Source: an uncultured Anaerolineales bacterium (GTDB lineage Bacteria; Chloroflexota; Anaerolineae; UBA3071). Taken from it: a stretch of 32,150 nt of DNA. A model generated the notes under the pieces. The model was given only the letters and a program-made list of their open reading frames with translations, did not search any database and had not been told where the DNA came from. Where the stretch lies: contig CAZPMV010000004.1 in assembly GCA_964587335.1 (NCBI GenBank), positions 1 to 32,150 on the forward strand. Reading direction: 5' to 3'. The translations under genes were made by a program, and so were the position numbers. Every line of letters starts with the position of its first letter. The first letter of the stretch is position 1. Positions 1,942 through 29,895 of this stretch are shown in pieces.

Positions 1942-3048
1942 CTACTCCAGGTCGTATTCCACCTCCGTCTCCTCAGCGATCTTCCGCAACTCGGCAACGA
2001 CCTTCGGATGCAGTGGGACGCCGTGAGCCCGCCGCTCGTCGGCCATCTCGAATTCCTTCTCACCGTGAATGTAGATGCGCTCCTGCCCCTCTACCTTGGC
2101 TGAATTCGTCAGACGCCGGATGATGTCATCCATGGTGGCCTCGAACCCCTCGATTGGACGGAAACCGTCCACCCGCAGCGCGCCGAAGAAGTGACCCACG
2201 TTCGCCGGCAGCGGCTTGCCATCCGGCGTCTTGGGATAGATGCTGGTGGCGTACCCCGCGCCAGGCAGCACGCCGCAGAGCACATCCACCAACAGCGCCA
2301 GGCCGTACCCCTTGTGGCCTCCCAGTTCCTCGTCCGCTCCGCCCAGAGGCAGGAGCCCACCGCCCGCCCGCGCCAGCAGGTTGCGCAGCACTCGCCCAGA
2401 GTCGGCGGTGGGCACGCCCTGCTCATCCGTGGCCCAGCCTATCGGCAGCGGCTTCTCCTGGCGGTCATACACCTCCAGCTTGCCGCGCGGCACGGTGGAA
2501 GTAGCCATGTCCAGCACGAAGGCCCGCTCCTCGCCTGCCGGCGCGGCCACGCTGATGGGATTGGTGCCCAGCACAGCATCGCGGCCGAAAGTCGGCACTA
2601 CCAGCACGGCAGCGTTGGTCATAGAGAAACCGATGCAACCATGCTCCAGGGCCATCATCGAGTAATAGCCAGCGATGCCGTAGTGGTTGGAATTGCGCAC
2701 GGTGACGAAGCCCGCGCCCACCTGCCGTGCCTTCTCGATGGCCAAGCGCATGGCACGCACCGACACCGGCTGGCCGAGCCCTGCACCACCATCGATCAGC
2801 GCCGTGGCCGGCGTCTCGTGCACCGCTTTGATCTGGGGACGGGCCACCATCACGCCATCCCGCAGACCGTTGACGTAGCGTCTGAGCCGCGCCACACCGT
2901 GAGAATCGATCCCCCGCAGATTGGCGGTAACCAAGCTGTCAGCCGTCACTGCCGCGTCTTCTGGCGGCACATCCAGCTTGATGAACACCCGCGTGCAGAA
3001 ATCCTTGAGCGGCTCTGCCCAAACGACAACTCCGGCGTTTCTAGACAT
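1942..3048 (-). CDS. Ldh_2 family malate/L-lactate/ureidoglycolate-type dehydrogenase
   Basis: 368 aa. 'LRGIDSHGVARL', 'VRNSNHYGIAGYY', 'GTNPISVAAP' and 'GGHKGYGLALLVDVL' are hallmark Ldh_2 (PF02615) motifs. Confidence 0.9.
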   Translation of the reverse strand: MSRNAGVVVWAEPLKDFCTRVFIKLDVPPEDAAVTADSLVTANLRGIDSHGVARLRRYVNGLRDGVMVARPQIKAVHETPATALIDGGAGLGQPVSVRAMRLAIEKARQVGAGFVTVRNSNHYGIAGYYSMMALEHGCIGFSMTNAAVLVVPTFGRDAVLGTNPISVAAPAGEERAFVLDMATSTVPRGKLEVYDRQEKPLPIGWATDEQGVPTADSGRVLRNLLARAGGGLLPLGGADEELGGHKGYGLALLVDVLCGVLPGAGYATSIYPKTPDGKPLPANVGHFFGALRVDGFRPIEGFEATMDDIIRRLTNSAKVEGQERIYIHGEKEFEMADERRAHGVPLHPKVVAELRKIAEETEVEYDLE

Positions 3049-3113
3049 CTTTGTCTCCTTTCATTTATATGTAGAACAGCGCTGAAAGGTCTGACAGGTC
3101 TGAGGCAATCTGA

Positions 3114-4064
3114 TCAGGCTGCTTCAGACCCCTTAGACCCCTCAGTTTCCTCAGTTTCTTTCATCACTCCATCCGCCACTAGCACCTTCTTCAAAGCCAT
3201 GACCGCACATTCTATCATGCTTCCGTCCGGCTCTCGCGTCGTCAGCCGCTGCACCGCCAGACCCGGCGCGATCATCCAGCGCACCAGGGGGTTATCTTGG
3301 TGGCTGGTGCTCAAGCGCACCAGTTCATAGGCGATGCCGGTGACCACGGGGATCAGCAACAAGCGTGCCATCAGGCGGTACAGCCAATGGTTGAAGTGGA
3401 AGGGAGCGAAGAGAAGGATGGACACCATAACTACCAACAGCGTGAAGCTGGTGCCACAACGGGTGTGGGCTGTGGGGAACGGGCTAATCTCCTGCAGTGT
3501 CAGCGGGCGACCTGCCTCGTAGGCGTTGATCGTCTTGTGCTCCGCTCCGTGGTAGGCGAAGACGCGGCGGACATCGGGCATGAAGCCGATGACCCAGACA
3601 TAGCCAACGAACAGCACCAGCCGAAACGCTCCCTCCAACAGGCTGCTTAACAGGTGCGAGGCAACGAAATGCTCTAGCCACTGCGCCACCAGGCTAGGAA
3701 TGAAGAAAAAGACGCCGATGCTGATCGCCAACGCCAGGGCCATCGTCGTCCAGGCTATCGGACCGCTGAATTCGACGTCCTCTTCCTCGCTCAGAGCCAC
3801 ATCGGCCGAGAAGGTCAGCGTGCGCATGCCCAGCACCAGCGCGTCCCAGAGGACAGCCAACCCTCGCACGAAAGGCAGCTTGGCCCAGCGGCTAGTATAG
3901 ATGAAGGCCTTCAGCGGCTCATCGTGCTGCACGATGTTGCCGTTGGGATGGCGCACGGCCACCGCCATGTGCGTGCGCCCGCGCATCATCACGCCTTCGA
4001 TGACCGCCTGCCCGCCGTAGTGGAAGTTGCTGTCAGGTTTCTCTCGGTCGTTATCTTTCGACAT
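3114..4064 (-). CDS. DUF1385 (YqhQ-like) membrane protein
   Basis: 316 aa with 'YGGQAVIEGVMMRG' near the N-terminus and 'YHGAEHKTINAYE', both DUF1385 signatures, plus several TM segments. The last ~15 codons are encoded by period-9 tandem words. Confidence 0.9.
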   Translation of the reverse strand: MSKDNDREKPDSNFHYGGQAVIEGVMMRGRTHMAVAVRHPNGNIVQHDEPLKAFIYTSRWAKLPFVRGLAVLWDALVLGMRTLTFSADVALSEEEDVEFSGPIAWTTMALALAISIGVFFFIPSLVAQWLEHFVASHLLSSLLEGAFRLVLFVGYVWVIGFMPDVRRVFAYHGAEHKTINAYEAGRPLTLQEISPFPTAHTRCGTSFTLLVVMVSILLFAPFHFNHWLYRLMARLLLIPVVTGIAYELVRLSTSHQDNPLVRWMIAPGLAVQRLTTREPDGSMIECAVMALKKVLVADGVMKETEETEGSKGSEAA

Positions 4065-18862: not shown

Positions 18863-19680
18863 CGCAGCAAGGTAAAGAGGAGGATGGTCACTCCGACAAC
18901 GGCGCAGTAGATGGCGAAGGGATAGAGACGACCGCGTTGCAGGTAGCGCAGCAGGAAACGGATGCAGCAGTAGCCGCTGGCCGCCGCAGCCAGGAAGCCT
19001 ACGATCAGGGCAGGCAGTTGCCCGCTGGCCCCGGCTGCGCCGAAGAGATCCACTAGCTTGAACAGCCCGGCGCCGAAGATGATGGGAGTGGAGAGCAGGA
19101 AGGAGTAGCGGGCGGCGACTTCGCGCCGCAGCCCTCGCGCCAGCCCCATGCCTATCGTGGCTCCAGAGCGGGAGATGCCGGGGGCGATGGCTGCTGCCTG
19201 CGCCAGCCCGATGAGCAGCGCGTCGGCCGCGCCCATCTGTTGCAGCCTCTTATTGCGGCGACCCCAGCGCTCGCTGGCGGCGAGGATGGCCGCCGTCAGC
19301 AGCAGGAACCCGGCCGCGGCGGGCGGCGTGTCGAACAGCGTTTCGAACCACTCCTCGAATAGCCAACCGACAAGCGCCGCCGGCAGCGTGCCGATGACGA
19401 TCCACCAGGCCAACCGTTCATCCCCCTCCCATTCTCCATTGTCCAATCTCCTGTTTACAATTCCCCTCACCCAGGCCTTCGCCAGCCGCCACAAATCCTC
19501 CCAGAACACCGCCAGCAAAGCAGCCAGCGTGCCCCAGTGCACCACGGTATCGAAGACCAGCCCTGGCGCGGGCCAGCCCAGCAGCCACGGCGCCAGCACT
19601 AGATGGCCGGAACTGCTCACCGGTATGAACTCGGTGGCCCCTTGGATGAGGCCGAGGATGAGAGCTCTGATTAAGTCCAA
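18859..19680 (-). CDS. uppP: undecaprenyl-diphosphate phosphatase
   Basis: 'GLIQGATEFIPVSSSGHLVL' and 'PGISRSGATI' are BacA/UppP signatures. TTG start with AGGAGG 8 nt upstream. Confidence 0.95.
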   Translation of the reverse strand: MDLIRALILGLIQGATEFIPVSSSGHLVLAPWLLGWPAPGLVFDTVVHWGTLAALLAVFWEDLWRLAKAWVRGIVNRRLDNGEWEGDERLAWWIVIGTLPAALVGWLFEEWFETLFDTPPAAAGFLLLTAAILAASERWGRRNKRLQQMGAADALLIGLAQAAAIAPGISRSGATIGMGLARGLRREVAARYSFLLSTPIIFGAGLFKLVDLFGAAGASGQLPALIVGFLAAAASGYCCIRFLLRYLQRGRLYPFAIYCAVVGVTILLFTLLR

Positions 19681-19978: not shown

Positions 19979-21430
19979 TCACCTCAGGACAAGCGGCAGG
20001 AACAGGTCATAGCCAGCGGGTGCTGCCGTCGGTGTGTCCGTCGGCGTGGCCGTGGGCGTTGCGGATGGTGTGGCGGTCAGTGTGGACGTCGGCGTTGCGG
20101 TCGGCGTGGCGGATGGCATCGCGGTCGGCGTATTGGTGGGCCCAGCGGTCGGGGTTGCCGTTGGGGTTGCGGTTGGCTCTGGCGAGCGATATTCGTCAGC
20201 GCCCAGGTCGTGTCCGCTGCCGGCGGGGCGGTCGTCGCCATCAATATCCTCGCTGATGCCCGAGTCCACACCTTGATCAATAGCTGCCGAGCCTGCGGTC
20301 AGGTGATAGCCATCGGCCTCGAAGGCGGGATCGCCGCTGGTAGCTTGGGAGATGTCCACCGTTCCCGCGCCGCTCCAATTGCTGTCACTGTTGGCATGCC
20401 ACAGCACACCGTTCAGCGTGACCGTGCTGCCCGCTTCCACGTCAATGCCCACCGTCTGGTTGGCCAGGATGATGTTGGTCAGTTCGACGCTGCTGGGGCC
20501 GGCCCAGGATTCGAGGCAGATGCCGGTGTCGTTGGCGCCGCTGTTGTGGTGGATGGTGCTGTGGAGCAAGTGGGGCGAAGAGTCGGTCACGTACACGCCG
20601 CAGCCGAGGTTGTGGGGCACTGCGAACATATGATTGTAGGCGACGACATCGTTCACCAGGCGGGCGTTGCTGCCAAAACCGAAGTGGATGCCGCTGCCAC
20701 TGAAGCCGGCTGTGTTCGAGGTGATGACGTTGCGGTCGAGGTGGGCAGGGCTGTTATCGAGGAGCAGCCCACCGCCGTCGCCATAGCTGCCGCCAGAGGT
20801 GGAAACGGCGCTGTTAGCGGTGATGACGTTCCTTCTGAGCGTGGCACTGCTGTCTTGCAGGTACAGTCCGCCGCCAGCCTGAGCGGTGTTGCCAAACACC
20901 CGGCAATCCTTCAGCGTGGCCGCAGCGGACATCACGTAGACGCCGCCTCCGGCATCTTCTCCCCAGTGGCCGCCGCCCAGGCTGGCAGCGTTGCCGCCGG
21001 TGATACGCAATCCTTCCAGGGTGGGGGAGATGTTACCGGTGATGTAGACCACGCGTCCCTGCCCCTGAGCGTCCAGAGTGGTAGGGTTAGCCTCCGGGTC
21101 CGGGGTGTCCCAGTTGGTCGTCGCATAGCCGCCGCGGATGGTGACGCTCTTGTTGACGTAGACCACCTGGGCCAGCCCACCATGGTTGTTCACATCGTCG
21201 TAAACGCCGCTGGCGACCTTGATGACATCACCAGCGTTGGCAACGTCTACAGCCTGCTGAATGGTAGCGTAATCGCAGCTCGGTGGGCCGGCCGGACAGA
21301 CGTGCAACTCGGCGGCAGGCGCGGCTGCAACAGGGTCAGACCGGATTCCCAGACCCCATGGCAGAGTCACAACCAGCGTCAGACCCAGACCCAGAGCGGG
21401 TAGAACGAGCCGGTGTTTGCTTTTCGACAT
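19979..21430 (-). CDS. secreted right-handed parallel beta-helix repeat protein with PT-rich linker and a short hydrophobic C-terminal tail
   Basis: Signal peptide 'HRLVLPALGLGLTLVVTLPWGLG'. Repeated PbH1-like units ('GGGLYLQDSSATLRRNVITANSA', 'GGGLLLDNSPAHLDRNVITSNTA'). 'DIDGDDRPAGSGHDLGADEY' is typical of the end of such domains. The C-terminus is (T/A/S-P-T)n followed by 'AGYDLFLPLVLR'. Confidence 0.8.
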   Translation of the reverse strand: MSKSKHRLVLPALGLGLTLVVTLPWGLGIRSDPVAAAPAAELHVCPAGPPSCDYATIQQAVDVANAGDVIKVASGVYDDVNNHGGLAQVVYVNKSVTIRGGYATTNWDTPDPEANPTTLDAQGQGRVVYITGNISPTLEGLRITGGNAASLGGGHWGEDAGGGVYVMSAAATLKDCRVFGNTAQAGGGLYLQDSSATLRRNVITANSAVSTSGGSYGDGGGLLLDNSPAHLDRNVITSNTAGFSGSGIHFGFGSNARLVNDVVAYNHMFAVPHNLGCGVYVTDSSPHLLHSTIHHNSGANDTGICLESWAGPSSVELTNIILANQTVGIDVEAGSTVTLNGVLWHANSDSNWSGAGTVDISQATSGDPAFEADGYHLTAGSAAIDQGVDSGISEDIDGDDRPAGSGHDLGADEYRSPEPTATPTATPTAGPTNTPTAMPSATPTATPTSTLTATPSATPTATPTDTPTAAPAGYDLFLPLVLR

Positions 21431-22962
21431 AGTCTCGAAATTATGTGCTTGGCTTACAGCTAGAGCGTGATACCAGTGAAAGGCGTTTCTTCGAGTATAG
21501 TTGGATTGCAGTATCCAACACTACTCGTAAGGAGAACGCCAAAGATGAGTATAGCTGAAGCCAGGACAGAGCGCAAAAACCGGACGATTACGCTCTATTT
21601 GGGCAGCACCTTGGCTGAATACGGAGCCACCTATCTGACAGCCGAAGGTATCCAAGCCGTAATCGAGAGAGTTGAGGTGGCAGACAGTATCAATTGGGGC
21701 TGTCTCGCTAGGGAACATCACGAGGGTTGCCCTCGGCTGTTACGTTTCACCTACCACAACAGTTATGTTCGTTGGGTCAAGCACTTCAATGGAACACGGT
21801 CGTCGGTTACGATACTCCGGGTCAGATGTTTGGACTGCGGTGCTGTTTTCACCGTTCAGCCATCGTTTGTCATCCGCTACAAGCGCTACGGAACAGATGC
21901 GGTAGAGAAGTTGATGGTCTTGTTGTTCATCACCGAAGACAGTTATCGCATGACTGGTGTCAGCCAAGCATTGGGCATGGACACCAAGCAAGCAGGTACC
22001 TGGATAGCCCTGGAAACGGAACAACCGCATGCCATTCAACCCAGAGCCTTGTGGGGACTCGTGCAATGGTTGGGACAGTTGTCGCCCGCTCAACTGAACC
22101 TGGCTTTGGGAGTAGATCCACCGGAATACATCCTCGAAGACGAGAAACATGTCAAAGAATGCGGGCAAAAAGCCTATGTGCCGATGATCTATGCTCCCAA
22201 AGAAGCCTTGATCTGGTGGGTAGACTACCTCCATAGTGCTTCTGAGGATGCGATAAGAAACAGTTTAGAACGATTCAAGGCTATCAGTGACCGTCTGAGT
22301 CATATCGTCGGTGCCACCGTAGATGGATGGGAAGGTGCCCAGAATGCTCTACGGGCTGCTTTTCCAGGCATTGCTTTGGAAGAATGCCATTTCCATGCTC
22401 TGCTCAAGCTCGGAAAACACTTGGCAACCTATAGGCGTCAACGAAAACAAGCAGGCAAGCCTGTCTCGGACACAGAAGAGGCCAACATTCGCGAGGCCTT
22501 CACGAAAGTCCTCAAAGCACCTACGCCCGAAGCCTACCAGGAAGCATTGGACGAATTGCCGGATGCATTCAAGCACCCTACCATGGCTTCTCGTAAACAG
22601 TCCCTGGTAGAGAAGCAAGCATTGTTCCAGGCCTGGACTACGGACGATAATCTGGCAGTGGTCTCTACGGCTCTGGATCAGTGTATGAAGTTCTTGAAGC
22701 GCAAGTTTCAGAACATGCAGACCTTTCGTGGAGACGAGAGCGGCTTGGCAACCGTAAACGCTTGGGCGATTACACGCAATTGCTGGCGATTTCTCAAAGG
22801 GGCGATACGCGCCGGTCTATCACCTCTCGAATTGGCTGGCGCTGGTTTCCTGGGCATTCCCTGGCTGCAACTGGTCAATTTGGTGTTGGCTGCTTGGCCT
22901 ACATTGCATTTGGCAGCGCCTGTGTTATGCCCAAGCACATAATTTGCTACTATGTCAGAAAA
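21421..22962 (+). mobile_element. insertion sequence (~1.54 kb) with terminal inverted repeats; family not assignable by eye
   Basis: AAATTATGTGCTTGG (21438-21452) is the exact reverse complement of CCAAGCACATAATTT (22931-22945). Imperfect extension outward (TTTTC-GACATAGT on both sides) reaches 21421 and 22962. The element encloses a single transposase ORF and is visibly AT-richer than its flanks. No target-site duplication was found. Confidence 0.8.
21545..22942 (+). CDS. DDE-type transposase with an N-terminal Cys-containing finger
   Basis: ATG 21545 is preceded by AAGGAG. Contains 'RVRCLDCGAVFTVQPSF', 'YILEDEKHVKECGQKAYVPMIY' and 'VGATVDGWEGAQNALRAAFPGIALEECHFHALLKL' (a D...D...FP...C.FH arrangement reminiscent of ISL3 or ISKra4-like enzymes). 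The stop codon lies inside the right inverted repeat. Confidence 0.75.
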   Translation: MSIAEARTERKNRTITLYLGSTLAEYGATYLTAEGIQAVIERVEVADSINWGCLAREHHEGCPRLLRFTYHNSYVRWVKHFNGTRSSVTILRVRCLDCGAVFTVQPSFVIRYKRYGTDAVEKLMVLLFITEDSYRMTGVSQALGMDTKQAGTWIALETEQPHAIQPRALWGLVQWLGQLSPAQLNLALGVDPPEYILEDEKHVKECGQKAYVPMIYAPKEALIWWVDYLHSASEDAIRNSLERFKAISDRLSHIVGATVDGWEGAQNALRAAFPGIALEECHFHALLKLGKHLATYRRQRKQAGKPVSDTEEANIREAFTKVLKAPTPEAYQEALDELPDAFKHPTMASRKQSLVEKQALFQAWTTDDNLAVVSTALDQCMKFLKRKFQNMQTFRGDESGLATVNAWAITRNCWRFLKGAIRAGLSPLELAGAGFLGIPWLQLVNLVLAAWPTLHLAAPVLCPST

Positions 22963-23173
22963 TCGAGGTGTGCCTCAAAGTTGTTCAGCAGCAAACGCAA
23001 AGAACATTGATTCCTTGAGAGACACCTTAAGAACCCCCGTGCCCTCTGTGCCTCAGTGGCGAGTCTGGCAGTTCTTTCAGTGGAGTCGTTTTGCGCTTTA
23101 CGTTTTGCATCTGGTGTGGCGGTGATGCTTTCTCCCCGCCGGTGACCGAGCCCTGTGCTCTCCATACCCGCAT

Positions 23174-23202
23174 TTGACAAAGCGAACATCTGTTCGTATA
23201 AT
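23174..23202 (+). promoter_or_regulatory. consensus sigma70 promoter of the radical SAM gene
   Basis: TTGACA (23174-23179), a 17-nt spacer, then TATAAT (23197-23202). Both hexamers match the consensus perfectly. Confidence 0.75.
23183..23196. promoter_or_regulatory. LexA operator (Cheo-box type, CGAAC-N4-GTTCG)
   Basis: CGAACATCTGTTCG is a perfect palindromic match to the Gram-positive-type SOS box. It lies entirely within the -35/-10 spacer. Confidence 0.65.
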
Positions 23203-23256
23203 GGCAGCCAGCGGGGAAACATCCGAAGCGAATGATCGGACAGGAGACGGGAACCG

Positions 23257-24405
23257 ATGGATACTCATCAGAAGCTCGACTTGCTGGGTCAAGCAGCCAG
23301 TTTCGATGTCTGCGCGCCGTCGGGCCGCTCGGCGGCGATGGCGCGAGGGTGCGTACAGCAACCACCAGATGTTAGGCCCTACATCTCCCACGTGCAACTG
23401 CCGAGCGGGCAGAAGAAGCCGGTGCTGAAGGTGCTGCTCACCAGCTTCTGCGAGCGCAACTGCCACTACTGCGCCTTCCGCGCTGGACGAGACCTGCCTC
23501 GCGCAGCTTTCACTCCCGACGACCTGGCCGCCGCGTTCGACCAGATCCAGCACCAGGGGCTGGTGCAAGGGCTCTTTCTCAGCTCCGGCGTGACCGGCAG
23601 CGTGCGCACCATGGACCGCATGATCGCCACAGTGGAGATCGTGCGCCAACGCTACGACTACCGCGGTTATGTCCACCTTAAGATACTGCCCGATGCCGAA
23701 GAGGCGCAAATCGAGCGGGCGGTACGGTTGGCAGATCGAGTCTCGGTAAACCTGGAAGCGCCGAATGCGGAGCGCTTGGCAACATTGGCGCCGCGCAAGG
23801 AGTTCGGCCAGGGCCTGATGGACCCGCTGCGCCGGGCGGCGGCAGCCATCGCCCGCGGGCAGGGCCGCTGGGCGAAGCTGGGGCTAACGACGCAGTTCGT
23901 GGTCGGCGCGGTGGGGGAAAGCGACCGTGAGCTGCTGACCACTACGCAGCGACTGTACGACGATCTGCGTCTGGCGCGGGCCTACTTCAGCGGTTTCAGC
24001 CCCATCCCCGACACGCCATTGGAGGAACATCCCCCTGCCCCTCCTGCCCGGCAGCACCGCCTGTATCAGAGCGACTTTCTCATGCGCTACTACGGCTTTC
24101 GGTTCGACGAGTTCATCTTCGACACTGAGGGCAGCCTGCCAGTGAACATGGACCCCAAGATCGCCTGGGCCCAGGCGCATCCGGAACGCTTCCCCATGGA
24201 GGTCAACCGCGCCTCCAAGGCTACTCTGCTGCGGGTTCCCGGCATCGGCCCCGTCTCCGCCCGCCGTATCCTGCAGGCTCGTCAGCAAAGCAAGCTGTTC
24301 TTCCTGAGCGATCTGCGCAAGCTCGGTGTGGTGACTTCCCGCGCTGCTCCCTACGTCCTGCTGAACGGCAAGCGTCCGCCGCTGCAACTGAGCCTCTTCG
24401 CTTGA
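23257..24405 (+). CDS. putative DNA modification/repair radical SAM protein (TIGR03916-like) with C-terminal helix-hairpin-helix
   Basis: 'KLDLLGQAASFDVC' start, 'LKVLLTSFCERNCHYCAFR' (CxxxCxxC), 'GLFLSSGV', 'GYVHLKILP', 'ADRVSVNLEAP...LAPRK', 'RLYQSDFLMRYYGF', 'DPKIAWAQAHPERFPMEVN', and the HhH motif 'LLRVPGIGPVSARRIL'. Confidence 0.85.
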   Translation: MDTHQKLDLLGQAASFDVCAPSGRSAAMARGCVQQPPDVRPYISHVQLPSGQKKPVLKVLLTSFCERNCHYCAFRAGRDLPRAAFTPDDLAAAFDQIQHQGLVQGLFLSSGVTGSVRTMDRMIATVEIVRQRYDYRGYVHLKILPDAEEAQIERAVRLADRVSVNLEAPNAERLATLAPRKEFGQGLMDPLRRAAAAIARGQGRWAKLGLTTQFVVGAVGESDRELLTTTQRLYDDLRLARAYFSGFSPIPDTPLEEHPPAPPARQHRLYQSDFLMRYYGFRFDEFIFDTEGSLPVNMDPKIAWAQAHPERFPMEVNRASKATLLRVPGIGPVSARRILQARQQSKLFFLSDLRKLGVVTSRAAPYVLLNGKRPPLQLSLFA

Positions 24406-24495
24406 ATTGGACGCGGACAAACGCGGAAGGCAGCAGACTCTGGGTCAGCGGAAAAGCGGAAGAAGCGGAATGAAAGCAACCTTCTGGAGAGAACA

Positions 24496-24942
24496 ATGCC
24501 TTACGAGATCCCGCCTCGTCAGAGGCCCAAAGACGACAACGGCTACTTCGAGCAACTGACCAAGGCAGTCTTCCGGGCTGGCTTTAGCTGGAAGGTCATC
24601 CGCGACAAGTGGCCCAACTTCCAGCGCGCCTTCGACGGCTTCGACATCAAGAAAGTGGCACGCTACGATGCCCGCGATCTGGATCGGCTGCTGGCCGATG
24701 AGGGGATCGTCCGCAATGGCCGCAAGGTTGAGGCCACCATCCACAACGCCAATGTGATACAGCAACTCATCGCCGAGCATGGTTCGTTCTACCATTACCT
24801 ACGCAGCCTGGATGGGCTAGACTACGCGGCCCGTCGCGAGGACCTGCGCCGCCGCTTCAAGCACCTCGGCCCCACGGGCATATTCGTCTTTCTCCACTGC
24901 GTGGACGAGGATGTGCCGAAGTGGGAGGAGCGGAACGTCTGA
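24496..24942 (+). CDS. tag: short DNA-3-methyladenine glycosylase I (Tag, Adenine_glyco)-like protein lacking the N-terminal Cys/His segment
   Basis: 'GYFEQLTKAVFRAGFSWKVIRDKWPNFQRAFDGFDIKKVARYDARDLDRLLADEGIVRNGRKVEATIHNA' aligns by eye to E. coli Tag residues ~30-125 ('LFEMICLEGQQAGLSWITVLKKRENYRACFHQFDP...AGIIRHRGKIQAIIGNA'). It is only 148 aa. Confidence 0.7.
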   Translation: MPYEIPPRQRPKDDNGYFEQLTKAVFRAGFSWKVIRDKWPNFQRAFDGFDIKKVARYDARDLDRLLADEGIVRNGRKVEATIHNANVIQQLIAEHGSFYHYLRSLDGLDYAARREDLRRRFKHLGPTGIFVFLHCVDEDVPKWEERNV

Positions 24943-24992
24943 TTGCGGATTGACGATTGCGGATTGCGGAATGGGACATCTGCGAACTGTGG

Positions 24993-25021
24993 TTGACAAG
25001 ATCTGACTCTGATGATATACT
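24993..25021 (+). promoter_or_regulatory. near-consensus sigma70 promoter of the 326-aa lipoprotein gene
   Basis: TTGACA (24993-24998), a 17-nt spacer, then TGaTATACT (25013-25021). Confidence 0.65.
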
Positions 25022-25087
25022 AATGGTCAGTGCAGGAACCACATCGCTTCACATGTTTCCCCGGGAAGAGGGGAAGGAGGTTGTCGC

Positions 25088-26068
25088 ATGCGTGCCTCAC
25101 GTTCTGTCCTCTTGGTCGCTACGTCGGTCATCCTCTGTTTGGTCAGTCTGACGTCGGCAGGCTGCGGTGGGTGGCGGGAAGCCCCATCTACGGAACCAGA
25201 ACCATTCCACGTCAACTTGCCCCGTCTGCACGTGACCTACGACGAGCAAGGCGAGCCCAGCATTCGAGGGGTCGGCCTGAGCACTGTCGAGCGGTTGGTG
25301 CGATCTGACCTGACGAGGCTCCGCTTCCCGCCAGAGCAGGTTCGGCAGTTGATGGAGTGGAACATCCAACACATCGAGCTGGCCCTGACAGCGGATGGGC
25401 TGTTCGTTTTCGTGAACAACAGACTCTTGCCGTACCTGGCCTGGGATGAGCAAACCCTGGCAAATGTGGGAGCGATGGCAGACAGACTGGATGTGCTACT
25501 GCCATCCGCTGCTCGATTCGTCCGCCTGCAGAACGTCTTGCCCCTGATACTACGCGGCGTTGGTGTGGGCATCGTCTTGGAGCTTCCCCTGGCTCCCGGC
25601 CAGGAGACCATTCCCTTCGAGGGTCATCCCAACGGCCTGCCAGTGACCCCGCCCGCGGAGGCTGCGGAGAAGCCGCTTACTCTCCACCTCCCCCTGCAAT
25701 ACGACCAGGCAGGAGAACCGTCTGTTAGCGGCATCAGAGTGCAGGAACTGGAGAAACTGACGGGGCAGCCCGTAGTGATCGGCAAGCTGGATCAAGCCAC
25801 CATGGGCACTATCCAGCAGGCCGAAGTCGAAACCGTGCTGGTGAAGATGGAAGCCAAGGGTCTTGTGCCCTACGTCAATGGCCAGCCAATGCCCTACATC
25901 GCCTGGGCGGACGAGCATCTGCTGAACCTGATTGAGCTCATTGAGGTCACATCTCCTGACGATCCCATCCTGGGCAATCCTCACCTGATTGACCTTGTGC
26001 GCCGCGCCGTGCCGGGGGTCAAAGAGGCCGACATCCAACTGTTCGTCGAGTTCCCTGCGCAGCCGTAA
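25088..26068 (+). CDS. probable lipoprotein with two homologous ~95-aa repeats; function unknown
   Basis: GGAAGGAGG lies 7 nt before the ATG. Signal peptide ends 'LTSAGC'. Repeat 1 'LHVTYDEQGEPSIRGV...GLFVFVNNRLLPYLAWDEQTLANV' parallels repeat 2 'LPLQYDQAGEPSVSGI...GLVPYVNGQPMPYIAWADEHLLNL'. Confidence 0.7.
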   Translation: MRASRSVLLVATSVILCLVSLTSAGCGGWREAPSTEPEPFHVNLPRLHVTYDEQGEPSIRGVGLSTVERLVRSDLTRLRFPPEQVRQLMEWNIQHIELALTADGLFVFVNNRLLPYLAWDEQTLANVGAMADRLDVLLPSAARFVRLQNVLPLILRGVGVGIVLELPLAPGQETIPFEGHPNGLPVTPPAEAAEKPLTLHLPLQYDQAGEPSVSGIRVQELEKLTGQPVVIGKLDQATMGTIQQAEVETVLVKMEAKGLVPYVNGQPMPYIAWADEHLLNLIELIEVTSPDDPILGNPHLIDLVRRAVPGVKEADIQLFVEFPAQP

Positions 26069-26133
26069 CCGACGCCTGACCTCACCTGACAGGGGCTGAG
26101 TGACTGACAGGCGCTGGGGAGACCAAACAAACC

Positions 26134-26946
26134 ATGAAGCGCTGGACGTGGTGGCTCATCGGCCTGATCGTACTGGCCATCCTGGTGGCCGCTGGGTATG
26201 CCGCGTGGCGCTGGCGCCCGCAAGAACGCTTGGAGACGACACCCACGCCCGTTCCTCTCACATCCACCCCTGAGCTTGCCGCCGTCGCCGAGGAAGAAGA
26301 GACGTTCTCCAAGATGCGACAGCAGATGGTAGAGCGCACCATACGCGCCCGCGGCGTCAGCTGTCCAGAGGTGCTGCGGGCCATGGAGACGGTGCCCCGC
26401 CACCGCTTTGTGCCAGATCGCTACCTGACAGAGGCCTACGCCGATCACCCGCTGCCCATCGGCTACGGCCAGACCATCTCCCAGCCCTACATCGTGGCGC
26501 TGATGACGGAATTGCTGAGGCTGGAATCAGACGAGCGAGTACTGGAGATCGGCACCGGCTCCGCTTACCAGGCGGCGGTGTTGGCCGAACTGGTGAACGA
26601 AGTCTACTCCATCGAGATCGTCCCCGAACTGGCCGATAGCGCTGCCCAGCGGCTGAAAGCGCTAGGCTACGACAACGTGCGCACGAAGCAAGGCGACGGC
26701 TACTACGGGTGGGAGGAATACGCCCCCTTCGATGCCATCATCGTCACCTGCGCGCCGGACCACGTGCCACAGCCGCTGGTCAACCAACTGGCCGAAGGCG
26801 GGCGACTGGTCGTTCCCGTCGGCCCGCCAGGTGGCTATCAGACGCTGTGGCAGTACGTGCGGGAAGAGGACGGGCTGAAGGCCTACAACCTCGGCGGGGT
26901 GCGCTTCGTGCCCCTGCTGCGGGAGGCGCCACAGTCAGCCGATTAG
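26134..26946 (+). CDS. pcm: protein-L-isoaspartate O-methyltransferase with an N-terminal transmembrane anchor
   Basis: 'VPRHRFVP', 'HPLPIGYGQTISQPYIVALM', 'VLEIGTGSAYQAAVLA' and 'GGRLVVPVG' are PCMT motifs, preceded by 'WWLIGLIVLAILVAAGYAAW' and a ~45-aa linker. Confidence 0.9.
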   Translation: MKRWTWWLIGLIVLAILVAAGYAAWRWRPQERLETTPTPVPLTSTPELAAVAEEEETFSKMRQQMVERTIRARGVSCPEVLRAMETVPRHRFVPDRYLTEAYADHPLPIGYGQTISQPYIVALMTELLRLESDERVLEIGTGSAYQAAVLAELVNEVYSIEIVPELADSAAQRLKALGYDNVRTKQGDGYYGWEEYAPFDAIIVTCAPDHVPQPLVNQLAEGGRLVVPVGPPGGYQTLWQYVREEDGLKAYNLGGVRFVPLLREAPQSAD

Positions 26947-29528
26947 GCCGATTGAGCCAATGATTCATCGGTTGCATCGGCTTCGTCGGCTTCATCAGCT
27001 TCATCGGCTTCATCGGCTGACTCTACCAGCCCCCAGACGCTCAGCGCCGCGGCAGCGTAGCAGGCAGCGCCTGCGCCAAGCACTGCGCTGAAGCCCCACG
27101 ACACCGCTCCTAGCGCAGCCAGAATCGAACTGAGCACCGACGTGCAGCCGTTGACCGCCCAGGCCCAGGGGATGAGCCTGGGCGCTCCTCGTTCCAGCAG
27201 TCCGATCCCTTTGGGGAAGGGCACGCCCATCAGAAAGCCGAGCGGGGCCAGCGCCAGCACAGCGATGACGAAGCGGCAGCCCAGTGGCAACCCCAGCGTC
27301 AGCCGGAAGAGAGGCGACAGGAGCAGCGGACAGAGAACGATGGCCGCGACCAGCACGACGAGCATCAGTCGGTGCGGCAAGAGCGGCGCGCAGAAGCTGC
27401 CCAGGCCCGAAAAGAGCAGCAAGGCGAACAACACAGCGGTCATGGCGTACACAGGCTGACCCAGGAAGAGGATGAACCGCTGGATCAGTGGGATCTCCAC
27501 GAACAGATAGGCCAGCCCCAGCAGCCCGAAGTACAGGAAGGCCCGCCCCCTGAGCTTGCCGAGTTCCCACGGATTCCCCCGATCACCCTCAGACCCTGCA
27601 TCGGAATGTCCGGTTCTCCTCACCAGGAGGGGCCCCAGGATCAGCACCGCCGAGGCCAACAGCGCCAACGCCAACAGCGCCAGAAACACGAAGTAGCCAC
27701 TGCCGCCGAAGGGCTGCCACGTCTTGCCCAGCGTTCGCAGGATGGCCGGCGTCTGCTGCCAGCGGAAGAAGTGGAAGAAGAAGGGGTGATCGTCAGTCGG
27801 TGGGGCGACGGCGAAGGGATAGCCGGCATAGAAGGTTCGCCGGTCGTCGGCGGCCAGCAGCTCGCCGAAGGCCTGGGCGTAGGTCGGCTGCGCCAGCACG
27901 TTATAGCGGTTGATCTCCTCGGCGCTGATGCTAGGCCCGACGACGAGATCGAAGCGACGGGCAGCGCAGAACTCCCGCACAGCGTCCACTTCCGCCAAAG
28001 TGAAGCCGCTCTTTGTGACCAAGAACGTACCCGTCTGCACACCGCGGAAGGCAATCACACTGTCCGCCGGATGGCTGACACCCGCTCTCTCCAGTGCTTC
28101 CAGGATCAACGCCAGCGTGCGAACGCTCTCGCTGGGTGGGGTCTGCAGCCAGCGCGTCACCACCAACAGGCCGTCGTCCTCCAAGTGGGCCAGATACTCG
28201 CCGAAGGCCTCAACGGTGTGCACGTAGTCCTCGGCCAGGCTGTAGACGCCAGAGGTCACGGGGCGATAAGATCCTGTGAGCGCCAGTTGCACCAGATCGA
28301 ATAACTCGCCACTGCGGCGCAGGTAACTGCGCCCCGCTTCCGTCACTACGGTAACCCGCGGATCTCCGTACACATCGCCGGCGGGCGGGGACATGCCGTA
28401 GCGAGCAGCAGCCAGCAGCAGCGGGTTGCTTTCCACGGCGGTGACGGCAGAAGCGCCCTCCGCCAGAGCGGCCCACACGTCCAGCCCCCCTCTCGGTTCC
28501 AGGATGAGGGCCCGCGCCCTCGGCCGCAAGCGGTAAGCCATCGCCGCTGGCAAATAGCCGCTGAACGCCAACTCGGCTTGCGGGTCGATAATGAGTGGCA
28601 CGGGGGAGAGGTCATCGCCGTCCACGCTCAGGCCAAGCTGTGGTGGGGGCGCGCCGCTGTAGGTGTAGCTCAGTCCTGGCAGTTGCCGCACGCCGGGGCT
28701 CTCCAGCAGGTCCACGCGGGAGAAAGCATTCCAGTCGCTGAAGACGACCCGAGCACCCGGATAGTGCAGTGCCTGGCTCAGTCCCTTGTAGGGCGAAAGC
28801 TGGACATCGAGGAAAGATGGCTGCACCAGCGTCAGCCAGGCCAACAGCGCCGTGCCCGCCAGGTAGCCCAGGGGCAGCAGACCACGGAAGCTCCCGCCGG
28901 ACGGCCACGTCCGCCGCCTGTCCGCCGACCTTGGCCGTCCGGCGGCAGCGTGTCGTGATCTGGCGAAAGCGGCCGCACTGAGCCAGCCCAGGAGCCCCGC
29001 TGCGGCGATAGTGCCTGGCCCGCCCAGCCGGGGCAGCAGCAACACAGCCAGCAAACAGCCCGCTGCCGAACCGGCCAGGTTGGCAGCGTAGAAACGGTTG
29101 GTCCGCTCGGGGGCCGCAGCCAGCGGGACGGACATCGCCAGCCCACTGAGGGCGAAGGGCACAAGCAGCGCCAGGTAATGCAGCAGCAAGTAGGCGACTT
29201 GCAGCCGGTCCCAGGCGATGCTATAGGAGTCGAAGGGTAGGATGTTGGTGAGCAGGTAGCTGGCGGGCACGCTGAGGCCAAAAGCGGCTGCCAGCCAGAC
29301 CAGGCGGCGGGGCCAGCGCCCGTGTGCCAGCCGCGGCCAGAGCGTCAGCGCCGATCCGCTGGCGCCGAAGCCCAGCAGCGCCAGGCTCACGGCCATGAAG
29401 GCGAAATGGTAGAACTGGGCCACAGAGAAAATGCGCGTCAGGCTGATCTCGAAGACAAAAGTGGCTGCCGCCAGCAAGAAGAGGCCCAGATAGATGGGGG
29501 TCACGGCCTTCCCTTTTCGCATGATCAC
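26943..29528 (-). CDS. polytopic membrane protein with a central spermidine-synthase-like (SpeE-fold) domain
   Basis: 861 aa. N-terminal TM block 'FVFEISLTRIFSVAQFYHFAFMAVSLALLGFGASG', central 'ALILEPRGGLDVWAALAEGASAVTAVESNP...FDLVQLAL...GLLVV', and a C-terminal TM block. The start may be ATG 29522. The last ~25 codons are encoded by the 9-mer array. Confidence 0.8.
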   Translation of the reverse strand: MIMRKGKAVTPIYLGLFLLAAATFVFEISLTRIFSVAQFYHFAFMAVSLALLGFGASGSALTLWPRLAHGRWPRRLVWLAAAFGLSVPASYLLTNILPFDSYSIAWDRLQVAYLLLHYLALLVPFALSGLAMSVPLAAAPERTNRFYAANLAGSAAGCLLAVLLLPRLGGPGTIAAAGLLGWLSAAAFARSRHAAAGRPRSADRRRTWPSGGSFRGLLPLGYLAGTALLAWLTLVQPSFLDVQLSPYKGLSQALHYPGARVVFSDWNAFSRVDLLESPGVRQLPGLSYTYSGAPPPQLGLSVDGDDLSPVPLIIDPQAELAFSGYLPAAMAYRLRPRARALILEPRGGLDVWAALAEGASAVTAVESNPLLLAAARYGMSPPAGDVYGDPRVTVVTEAGRSYLRRSGELFDLVQLALTGSYRPVTSGVYSLAEDYVHTVEAFGEYLAHLEDDGLLVVTRWLQTPPSESVRTLALILEALERAGVSHPADSVIAFRGVQTGTFLVTKSGFTLAEVDAVREFCAARRFDLVVGPSISAEEINRYNVLAQPTYAQAFGELLAADDRRTFYAGYPFAVAPPTDDHPFFFHFFRWQQTPAILRTLGKTWQPFGGSGYFVFLALLALALLASAVLILGPLLVRRTGHSDAGSEGDRGNPWELGKLRGRAFLYFGLLGLAYLFVEIPLIQRFILFLGQPVYAMTAVLFALLLFSGLGSFCAPLLPHRLMLVVLVAAIVLCPLLLSPLFRLTLGLPLGCRFVIAVLALAPLGFLMGVPFPKGIGLLERGAPRLIPWAWAVNGCTSVLSSILAALGAVSWGFSAVLGAGAACYAAAALSVWGLVESADEADEADEADEADATDESLAQSA
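26966..27021 (+). repeat. tandem 9-mer array (CATCGGCTT consensus, 6 clear copies) ending in CATCGGCTGAC
   Basis: CATCGGTTG CATCGGCTT CGTCGGCTT CATCAGCTT CATCGGCTT CATCGGCTG AC. Two to three more degenerate period-9 units lie at 26941-26965. The array encodes the ADEADEADEADEAD tail of the convergent 861-aa ORF. Confidence 0.9.
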
Positions 29529-29567: not shown

Positions 29568-29895
29568 CATCAGCTTCATCGGCTGACTGTCAGCGGAAAA
29601 GTGGAAGGAACGGAAGGAAACAGAGAAGATCGACAGAAGCATGAACTCCCATCGGCTTCATCGGCCACATCAGCTTCATCGGCTGACTGTCAGCGGAAAA
29701 GCGGAAGGAACGGAAGGAACGGAAGGAAACAGAGAAGATCGACGAAAGCATGAACTCCCATCGGCTACATCAGCTTCATCGACTCCATCGGCTTCATCGG
29801 CTACATCAGCTCCATCGGCTTCATCGGCCACATCAGCTCGATCAGCTACATCGGCTCCATCAACTCCATCGGCTTCATCGGCTTCATCGGCTGAC
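29568..29895 (+). repeat. composite repeat: CATCGGCTT-type 9-mer arrays (2 + 4 + 15 copies) interrupted by two copies of a ~65-75-bp core
   Basis: Core 1 spans ~29586-29649 and core 2 spans ~29686-29758. The cores are identical except for 2 substitutions and one extra GGAAGGAAC unit. Each starts inside the palindrome GCTGACTGTCAGC (29582-29594 and 29682-29694, exactly 100 bp apart). Fifteen consecutive 9-mers run from 29759 to 29893. Confidence 0.9.

Follow-up and report, generated by a model that had tools for sequence, protein, structure and literature searches.

The DNA analyzed here, referred to below as the window, is a stretch of 32,150 nucleotides (nt) of contig CAZPMV010000004.1 from an uncultured Anaerolineales bacterium of the phylum Chloroflexota. 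On its forward strand lie, one behind the other, a consensus promoter that carries a LexA-type box in its spacer, a gene for a radical S-adenosylmethionine (SAM) protein of 382 amino acids (aa), and a gene for a 148-aa protein with the fold of the DNA glycosylase Tag; a putative insertion sequence precedes the promoter. An earlier reading of the same DNA, here called the original prediction, described the two genes as an SOS-repressed module in which the Tag-like protein fills the slot of a uracil-DNA glycosylase (UDG)-like partner. The analysis presented here strongly supports SOS repression of the radical SAM gene, which belongs to a clade that is essentially solo, and reveals its adjacency to the Tag-like gene as an arrangement local to one lineage.

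The radical SAM protein is related to the TIGR03916 (COG4277) family, which occurs in a large fraction of bacteria as a recurrent SOS gene (PMC8565304; bioRxiv 10.64898/2026.08.19.745780). A LexA-regulated operon of UDG and radical SAM genes (COG1573-COG4277) has been described in Bacteroidetes, Verrucomicrobia and Alphaproteobacteria (PMC8565304), LexA control has been predicted for the CAC3343-3344 operon of Clostridium acetobutylicum (PMC3828012), and the UDG-radical SAM pair lies within the DNA-damage response of Moraxellaceae (PMC12392091). SOS control of the family itself is not new, having already been published for these other phyla; new here is a solo variant in Chloroflexota that scores below the TIGR03916 threshold and is predicted to be under LexA control of the Cheo type. 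There is apparently no earlier report of SOS control for this Chloroflexota clade in the searchable literature.

The radical SAM gene and its promoter

The -35 hexamer TTGACA (23174-23179, + strand) and the -10 hexamer TATAAT (23197-23202, +) are separated by 17 nt and form the single perfect (12/12) match to the sigma-70 consensus within positions 21000-27000. Spacer positions 4-17 are occupied by CGAACATCTGTTCG (23183-23196, +), a putative LexA operator of the Cheo/Gram-positive type that abuts the -10 hexamer, scores 20.3 bits against the position-specific scoring matrix (PSSM) described below, and is the sole exact CGAAC-N4-GTTCG in the window. All coordinates of the promoter (23174-23202) and of the box in its spacer agree with the original prediction, which had also called the box a 14-bp palindrome; the 6-bp arms (CGAACA/TGTTCG) do pair, but the central TC is asymmetric, so the palindrome is imperfect (12 of 14 positions symmetric). 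The ATG of the radical SAM gene, at 23257, lies 54 nt past the -10 hexamer. A 12/12 promoter whose spacer holds an exact box exceeds chance expectation by far, and the arrangement recurs at orthologous loci. A second near-match box (19332-19345) was rejected; it has one mismatch, is located within the coding sequence of a BacA-family gene, and does not rise above chance (at least two matches in 23 of 100 shuffles).

The gene behind this promoter (23257-24405, +) encodes a radical SAM/helix-hairpin-helix (HhH) protein of 382 aa that belongs to the solo Chloroflexota clade. The cluster motif CERNCHYC and the C-terminal HhH, which had been read by eye, are confirmed by Pfam matches to Radical_SAM (PF04055, 42.2 bits) and HHH_3 (27.5 bits), and the motif cysteines C65, C69 and C72 are invariant among 20 homologues. 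Membership in TIGR03916, also part of the original prediction, holds as to full-length homology (residues 4-373 against model positions 2-380; E = 7e-94) but not as to the score, which at 315.3 bits stays under the curated cut-off of 343.5. The same is true of ten of ten Chloroflexota orthologues tested (302-338 bits), all of which end at about position 380 of the 415 in the model; canonical members encoded on Caballeronia and Paracoccus plasmids reach 547 and 561 bits, with about 39% identity to the window protein. As judged from these sequences, the Chloroflexota-wide clade forms the sister group of the "DNA modification/repair radical SAM" family, TIGR03916/COG4277. An AlphaFold2 (AF2) model of the 382-aa protein has a pLDDT (predicted local distance difference test) score of 75.7.

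Conservation of the box and its relation to LexA

The box was followed through orthologous loci from 80 species-representative genomes (49-61% identity; 79 of the 80 titled Chloroflexota, mostly Anaerolineae), to which several metagenome contigs were added. The first three relatives inspected, whose flanks are all different, have the same promoter with a box in its spacer (TTGACAgggCGAACGTTTGTTCGTATAAT, TTGACAaatAGAACCTTTGTTCGTATAAT and TTGACAaatAGCACATTTGTTCGTATAAT), and a strict pattern of this architecture was found at 41 of the 80 loci with enough upstream sequence. A PSSM built from these 41 promoters was applied, with a threshold of 14 bits and shuffled sequence as the control, to 662 kb of DNA (83 non-redundant Chloroflexota loci plus the window). 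It gave 67 matches, as against 0-3 in shuffles, and 66 of the 67 are placed immediately before the radical SAM gene, each at a different locus. TTGAC is found at most 12 nt upstream of the box at 59 of these 66 loci, TTGACA exactly 3 nt 5′ of it at 37, and TATAAT abutting it at 35; the register of the window (TTGACA-N3-box-TATAAT) is reproduced identically at 26. Box and promoter are kept at orthologues of 49-96% protein identity despite unrelated flanking genes, and the 5′ half-site often begins with A instead of C.

The 67th match, the only one that is not at a radical SAM gene, is situated some 77 nt before a lexA homologue (locus L062), the product of which matches Bacillus subtilis LexA with E = 2.5e-43. 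At this locus, which comes from a Chloroflexia metagenome-assembled genome, the lexA promoter is likewise TTGACA-17-TATAAT and carries AGAACAAACGTGCG (L062 1243-2300). The lexA gene is on the opposite strand, 2 kb before the radical SAM gene. A divergent gene string (2281-3228, 3225-3974) shares the box region and runs into the radical SAM gene at 4001, which has no box of its own.

When the L062 LexA was used as a query against metagenomes and the 15 non-redundant closest lexA loci were kept, GAAC-N4-GTNC was found within 150 nt upstream of lexA at 13 of the 15, and the remaining 37.5 kb of these loci contained one such site. The original prediction had proposed a check of the motif at canonical SOS genes; the check covered lexA, where the motif is present. 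The scan had an incidental positive control in marine metagenome contigs (L130-L170; GC content 0.28-0.31), where AGTACATTTGTTCG-type sites, which match a cyanobacterial motif variant, lie 12-19 nt upstream of lexA genes whose products are about 31% identical to the Chloroflexia LexA. Fernandez de Henestrosa and colleagues are said to have shown in 2002 the same motif as that of the window for Dehalococcoides, a member of the Chloroflexi. For Gram-positive bacteria, both Firmicutes and Actinobacteria, GAAC-N4-GTTC is well established as the motif of LexA (PMC3323433).

Canonical members of the family carry operators of other kinds. Upstream of the TIGR03916-UdgX operon on the Caballeronia plasmid lies TACTGTATAAATATACAGTA, the LexA box expected for its class, and the canonical operon on the Paracoccus plasmid is preceded, on the other strand, by GAAC-N7-GAAC, the alphaproteobacterial direct repeat.

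The box in the window is very probably an operator for LexA that lies within a strong promoter, and SOS repression of the radical SAM gene is likewise very probable, because a box is present at about 80% of orthologous loci (66 loci with an upstream box), the motif recurs in the promoters of lexA, and SOS control of the family has published precedent (PMC8565304, PMC3828012). This part of the original prediction is strongly supported.

The Tag-like gene and other neighbours

The second gene (24496-24942, +) encodes a short Tag-fold protein of 148 aa from a conserved subfamily of PF03352. As had been predicted, it aligns to the Tag core and is without the N-terminal Cys/His-containing segment: it matches PF03352 (Adenine_glyco) with 96.9 bits over profile positions 21-114 of 177 (threshold, 25), and reaches 78.8 bits against TIGR00624 (cut-off, 232.5) and 43.1 against PRK10353 (cut-off, 349). 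Its AF2 model (pLDDT 90.5) is matched by Foldseek over the whole 148 aa to Staphylococcus aureus Tag (2jg6) and to 4aia with a template-modelling (TM) score of 0.78; the root-mean-square deviation from the S. aureus protein is 2.4 Å at 30% identity. The model also superposes on E. coli Tag along its entire length. The description of the protein as truncated did not stand, because more than 1000 homologues share approximately the same length (almost all 148-149 aa; 50 invariant positions among 21 sampled), and it is therefore not a truncated remnant.

In Tag (E. coli numbering), zinc is bound by Cys4, His17, His175 and Cys179, and 3-methyladenine (3mA) is recognized by Tyr16 and Glu38, as seen in structures 2ofi and 4aia. 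In an alignment to E. coli Tag, the short form has no match to the N-terminal ~18 residues (with Cys4, Trp6, Tyr13, Tyr16 and His17), has an invariant Ala24 at the position of Glu38, and is without a 23-residue internal segment and without His175/Cys179; it keeps the equivalent of Trp46 (W32) and the HhH hairpin LGPTG. Because the N-terminal and C-terminal Cys/His ligands are missing, the short Tag appears to be a zinc-less subfamily with an incomplete 3mA pocket, and 3mA excision by it is putative. The subfamily is annotated everywhere as 3-methyladenine glycosylase I, an annotation that deserves checking because the 3mA-recognizing residues are missing. A search for a solved structure of the short form found none.

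The two genes are separated by a 90-nt spacer (24406-24495, +) with a short tandem repeat (AGCGGAAGA). The spacer had been described as free of hairpins, and this is confirmed: there is no terminator-like site in it, its fold is no better than that of shuffled sequence (z = 0.40), and no promoter-like site of at least 9/12 lies between 24300 and 24496. Because there is neither a promoter nor a terminator between the two genes, the tag gene is probably carried on the SOS-induced transcript by read-through in the window and in its relative L086, where the spacer is 59 nt and consists of heptamer repeats and a ribosome-binding site. In two other relatives, L001 and L088, the spacer measures 200 nt and holds a conserved promoter-like element, TTGC(T/G)G-16-TATAAT, before tag; this element is not found in the window or L086.

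Linkage of the two genes is restricted to a single lineage. The search for partner genes reached about 4 kb to each side of the radical SAM gene, and within this distance none of the 80 species-representative orthologous loci has a Tag-like gene; tblastn of the 148-aa protein against all Chloroflexota loci returned only the window and L001. Adjacency is confined to four closely related syntenic contigs (L001, L086, L087 and L088) with a radical SAM identity of at least 79%. Seen from the Tag side, homologues of 80-93% identity (L086, L087 and L088) share the synteny of the window: the radical SAM and Tag-like genes are followed by a gene for a hydrolase, which may be missing, and then by those for a ~320-aa protein, PCMT and a large membrane protein. 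Homologues at 72% identity lie after HD and nitroreductase genes and before a gene for a dynamin-like GTPase, with neither a radical SAM gene nor a box. Because tag linkage is limited to syntenic relatives and 72%-identity homologues are found elsewhere, the adjacency is a local, one-lineage arrangement and not a conserved functional pair. The proposal of a two-gene module with the Tag-like protein in the UDG-partner slot is not supported by these counts.

Nor was such a slot evident. Among the 25 families (each with at least two members) listed in a Pfam census of the 145 immediate flanking open reading frames (ORFs), DUF4130, UDG and Adenine_glyco are absent; tblastn with two canonical UdgX/DUF4130 (TIGR03915+TIGR03914) fusions against the Chloroflexota loci found nothing; and in a clustering of all flanking ORFs combined with the Pfam census no partner appeared in more than 12 of the 80 loci. 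The clade, with no TIGR03915/UDG neighbour, is as judged by its gene neighbourhoods an essentially solo SOS gene, and tends to sit among other damage-response genes. A literature search for UdgX together with radical SAM returned nothing. A reading as anti-phage defence was dropped, as PADLOC gave no match for the radical SAM, Tag-like, 326-aa, insertion-sequence or DUF6504 proteins.

The only recurrent same-strand neighbour, and with it the only recurrent candidate partner of the clade, is DUF6504 (PF20114, ~120 aa), which follows directly downstream on the same strand at 12 of the 80 loci and often overlaps the radical SAM stop codon (L026 1312-1674, L061 5212-5574, L066 2521-2889, L078 5162-5524 and L035 5131-5475; also L006, L023, L049, L065, L072, L077 and L079); it is not found in the window. 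The DUF6504 protein had no NCBIfam, PADLOC or literature match. It might be the standalone "ImuB-C" domain that has been linked to radical SAM repair genes (PMC3765255). At eight of the 80 loci (L020 6940-8193 on the - strand, L028, L029, L030, L041, L043, L059 and L057) a convergent gene for a Y-family (DinB-like) polymerase (IMS, IMS_C, HHH) directly follows the radical SAM gene; within the fetched DNA these polymerase genes have no box that reaches 14 bits. At L023 (2219-3088, +) and L049 (1748-2608, +) an AlkC/AlkD-like HEAT-repeat glycosylase gene (PF08713, "DNA_alkylation") stands between the radical SAM gene and DUF6504, so that in another lineage a second, unrelated alkylpurine glycosylase family lies directly behind the same SOS gene.

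Upstream of the promoter, the putative insertion sequence (21438-22945, +; 1.5 kb, with GC content down to 0.52-0.55) is bounded by perfect 15-bp terminal inverted repeats, AAATTATGTGCTTGG (21438-21452) and CCAAGCACATAATTT (22931-22945), around a 491-aa ORF (21467-22942). The ORF product has an N-terminal DUF6431 and matches IS256/ISL3/IS1249 transposases below threshold only, and no target-site duplication is recognizable in the flanks. The element is absent from the 95%-identical relative L086, to which the window becomes homologous again only at 23104, so that the insertion has spared the promoter. It had been described as immediately upstream, and it does lie upstream, but 229 bp separate its right end from the -35 hexamer and the two do not abut.

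Just after the tag stop codon lies a (GATTGCG)n heptamer hairpin (24941-24997, +; 4.3 copies by Tandem Repeats Finder (TRF); -20.8 kcal/mol, z = -2.0, no T tract), a possible 3′ end of the transcript. Heptamers of this type (GATTGCG/GAATGCG)n begin at stop codons or run over them (TGATTGCGG...) in intergenic spacers of the window (24941-24970), L086 (5938-5975, 6444-6480) and L088 (4797-4875, 5444-5470); they may stand in for a terminator or be an intergenic repeat peculiar to this lineage. On its downstream side the unit is bounded by a separate strong promoter, TTGACA-17-TATACT with an upstream TG (24993-25021, +), which is conserved in L086 and drives the gene for a 326-aa protein (25088-26068) with a lipoprotein-like N-terminus (…LTSAGCGG…). 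This protein had no Pfam, NCBIfam or PADLOC match and is syntenic with PCMT in all four related contigs.

Several further repeats were noted in this lineage. The ORF for an 861-aa membrane protein (26943-29528, - strand) is flanked by related 9-nt tandem repeats, TTCATCGGC x6 (26964-27018) and CCATCGGCT x15 (29568-29892), both also present in L086; the former encode an (ADE)n C-terminal tail, and the latter lie inside a 100-nt higher-order repeat in the region upstream of the ORF. In L088 (3495-3687) the leader of the radical SAM gene is about 180 nt long (54 nt in the window), and the additional stretch contains repeated GGACCTTAGTCC-like palindromic elements that also occur upstream of the promoter, which suggests that a small mobile repeat has inserted into the 5′ untranslated region. 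The ORF at 19979-21430 (- strand) encodes a right-handed beta-helix protein that ends in a Pro/Thr/Ala-rich repeat (PTATPTATPT...), specified by tandem repeats of 12/36/48 nt (window 20028-20131); its homology (78%) to a 1516-aa protein found at this position in L086 is restricted to the N-terminal part.

Interpretation and comparison with known systems

The reading favoured here, which we hold to be likely, is that LexA bound in the promoter spacer holds the gene off and that damage releases a burst of a radical SAM enzyme acting on a DNA lesion, the Tag-fold protein being carried along in this lineage. In the undamaged cell a LexA dimer on the spacer would block RNA polymerase; upon DNA damage, RecA-stimulated self-cleavage of LexA would free a very strong promoter and give a burst of transcription. 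The radical SAM enzyme, with its HhH DNA-binding domain, would most likely act directly on damaged DNA by 5′-deoxyadenosyl-radical chemistry, and the short Tag-fold protein probably rides the same SOS-induced transcript by read-through in the window lineage. LexA binding, damage induction, co-transcription and the chemistry of the enzyme are what we infer here, starting from the observed sequence features, their conservation, the motif at lexA and the protein families.

Several points weigh against this reading. About 20% of orthologous loci have no strong box, and the PSSM scores are circular for the 41 loci on which the matrix was trained, these being the same promoters; neither the lexA-locus control nor the box-bearing loci beyond these 41 depend on that training. 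The metagenome lexA loci carry no taxonomy. A TIGR03915 partner could lie elsewhere in the genomes, beyond the ~4 kb searched on each side. Co-transcription is deduced from the absence of signals alone, and the tag gene may be expressed independently, because L001 and L088 carry a promoter-like element before it. Finally, a Protein Data Bank (PDB) fold search with the radical SAM model returned generic cores only (HydE, LIAS, BioB, PFL-AE and viperin); neither a substrate clue nor a specific link to spore photoproduct lyase came from these matches.

An operator of some other regulator, or a structural feature of strong promoters, could be suspected in GAAC-N4-GTTC, as the box is fixed in register with the hexamers and promoter constraints could explain part of its conservation. 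The other strong promoter nearby (24993-25021) has no box, the motif is in 662 kb essentially confined to the radical SAM gene and lexA and recurs at 13 of 15 related lexA loci, it equals the Gram-positive LexA consensus, and the canonical members in Proteobacteria carry LexA boxes of their own classes; we consider a non-LexA origin very improbable. Better placed, and a genuine if secondary possibility, is SOS control of the radical SAM gene next to a tag gene that is a separate, constitutive housekeeping glycosylase gene with a weak promoter of its own in the radical SAM 3′ end or the spacer. In its favour, E. coli expresses Tag constitutively in the classical view, short Tags are found widely and for the most part away from the radical SAM gene, and the TTGC(T/G)G-16-TATAAT element is conserved in the L001 and L088 spacers; set against this are the lack in the window of any promoter-like site of 9/12 or better at 24300-24496, the lack of a terminator-like site or stable structure between the genes, and the L086 spacer, which has room for just 59 nt of heptamers and ribosome-binding site.

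A functional SOS repair module of radical SAM and Tag-like proteins, with the Tag fold replacing the UdgX/DUF4130 partner, is in our estimate unlikely. It would account for the adjacency on one strand, with no promoter or terminator between the genes, in the window and L086/L087, for the gene order kept in L001 and L088, and for the PF08713 genes directly behind the radical SAM gene in L023 and L049, which hint at repeated recruitment of base-excision enzymes. It is at odds with the absence of Tag-like genes from the 80 species-representative loci, with an adjacency limited to one syntenic lineage, with the promoter-like element in the 200-nt spacers of L001 and L088, with the 72%-identity Tag-like homologues in unrelated contexts that have no LexA box, with a clade that has no recurrent partner except DUF6504 (12 of 80), and with a short Tag that is without the residues recognizing 3mA. 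The two independent alkylpurine-glycosylase cases, Tag-like here and AlkD-like in L023 and L049, are the only remaining support for the idea of a glycosylase swap, and are anecdotal.

Under the favoured reading of a LexA-controlled radical SAM gene with a passenger tag gene, SOS control of the family extends to a further phylum by way of a very well conserved Cheo-type operator, and the conserved promoter and operator can serve as a marker for mapping the otherwise uncharacterized SOS regulon of Anaerolineae. Because it is encoded without a DUF4130/UdgX partner, the Chloroflexota clade offers a one-protein system for reconstitution and a simpler biochemical target; the same absence suggests an accessory role for the DUF4130/UdgX partner, outside the catalytic core. 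No conclusion on the lesion of the radical SAM enzyme should be drawn from the Tag-like neighbour. A bolder proposal, which is speculative and more probably wrong than right by a wide measure, is that a self-sufficient SOS radical SAM clade dispensed with DUF4130/UdgX and that lineages independently added alkylpurine glycosylases to the damage-induced transcript directly behind it, the short zinc-less Tag in the window lineage and PF08713 proteins in L023 and L049; if it were true, the enzyme would be expected to handle an alkylated base or another base lesion related to glycosylases, and the solo form would offer the simplest route to the TIGR03916 substrate.

Compared with known systems, the 148-aa protein resembles Tag (PF03352, TIGR00624; 2jg6, 4aia, 2ofi and 1lmz) in its helix-hairpin-helix fold and in passing the Pfam threshold, and differs from it in length (Tag has ~187 aa), in having no zinc "snap", and in scoring far under the TIGR00624 cut-off. 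Spore photoproduct lyase, SplB (COG1533), the other DNA repair enzyme of the radical SAM type under SOS regulation, likewise has DNA as its presumed target; it is a frequent SOS regulon member (PMC8565304), and the COG4277 family has been named "SplB-like" (PMC3765255). It is nonetheless a different family: the window protein matches no NCBIfam or Pfam SplB model, spore photoproduct lyase structures lie outside its top fold matches, and nothing found here points to thymine photoproducts as the substrate of the window enzyme.

LexA-repressed promoters of the Bacillus/Gram-positive type share with the window the exact consensus CGAAC-N4-GTTCG overlapping the core promoter, and with the related organisms examined here the same motif upstream of lexA. 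Unlike in that type, the register is unusually fixed in Chloroflexota, with the box at spacer positions 4-17 between perfect hexamers at 26 species-level loci, and the 5′ half-site departs from the consensus in often starting with A and not C. The canonical TIGR03916 proteins have in common with the window protein homology over the full length, the CxxxCxxC motif, the C-terminal HhH and control by LexA within the SOS response, which for the window gene is predicted. Unlike them (547-561 bits), the window protein scores 315 bits at ~39% identity, is about 20 residues short near its C-terminal end, and is accompanied by no TIGR03915/UdgX gene within ~4 kb in the window or at any Chloroflexota locus; its operator, unlike theirs, is of the Cheo type and lies inside the promoter spacer.

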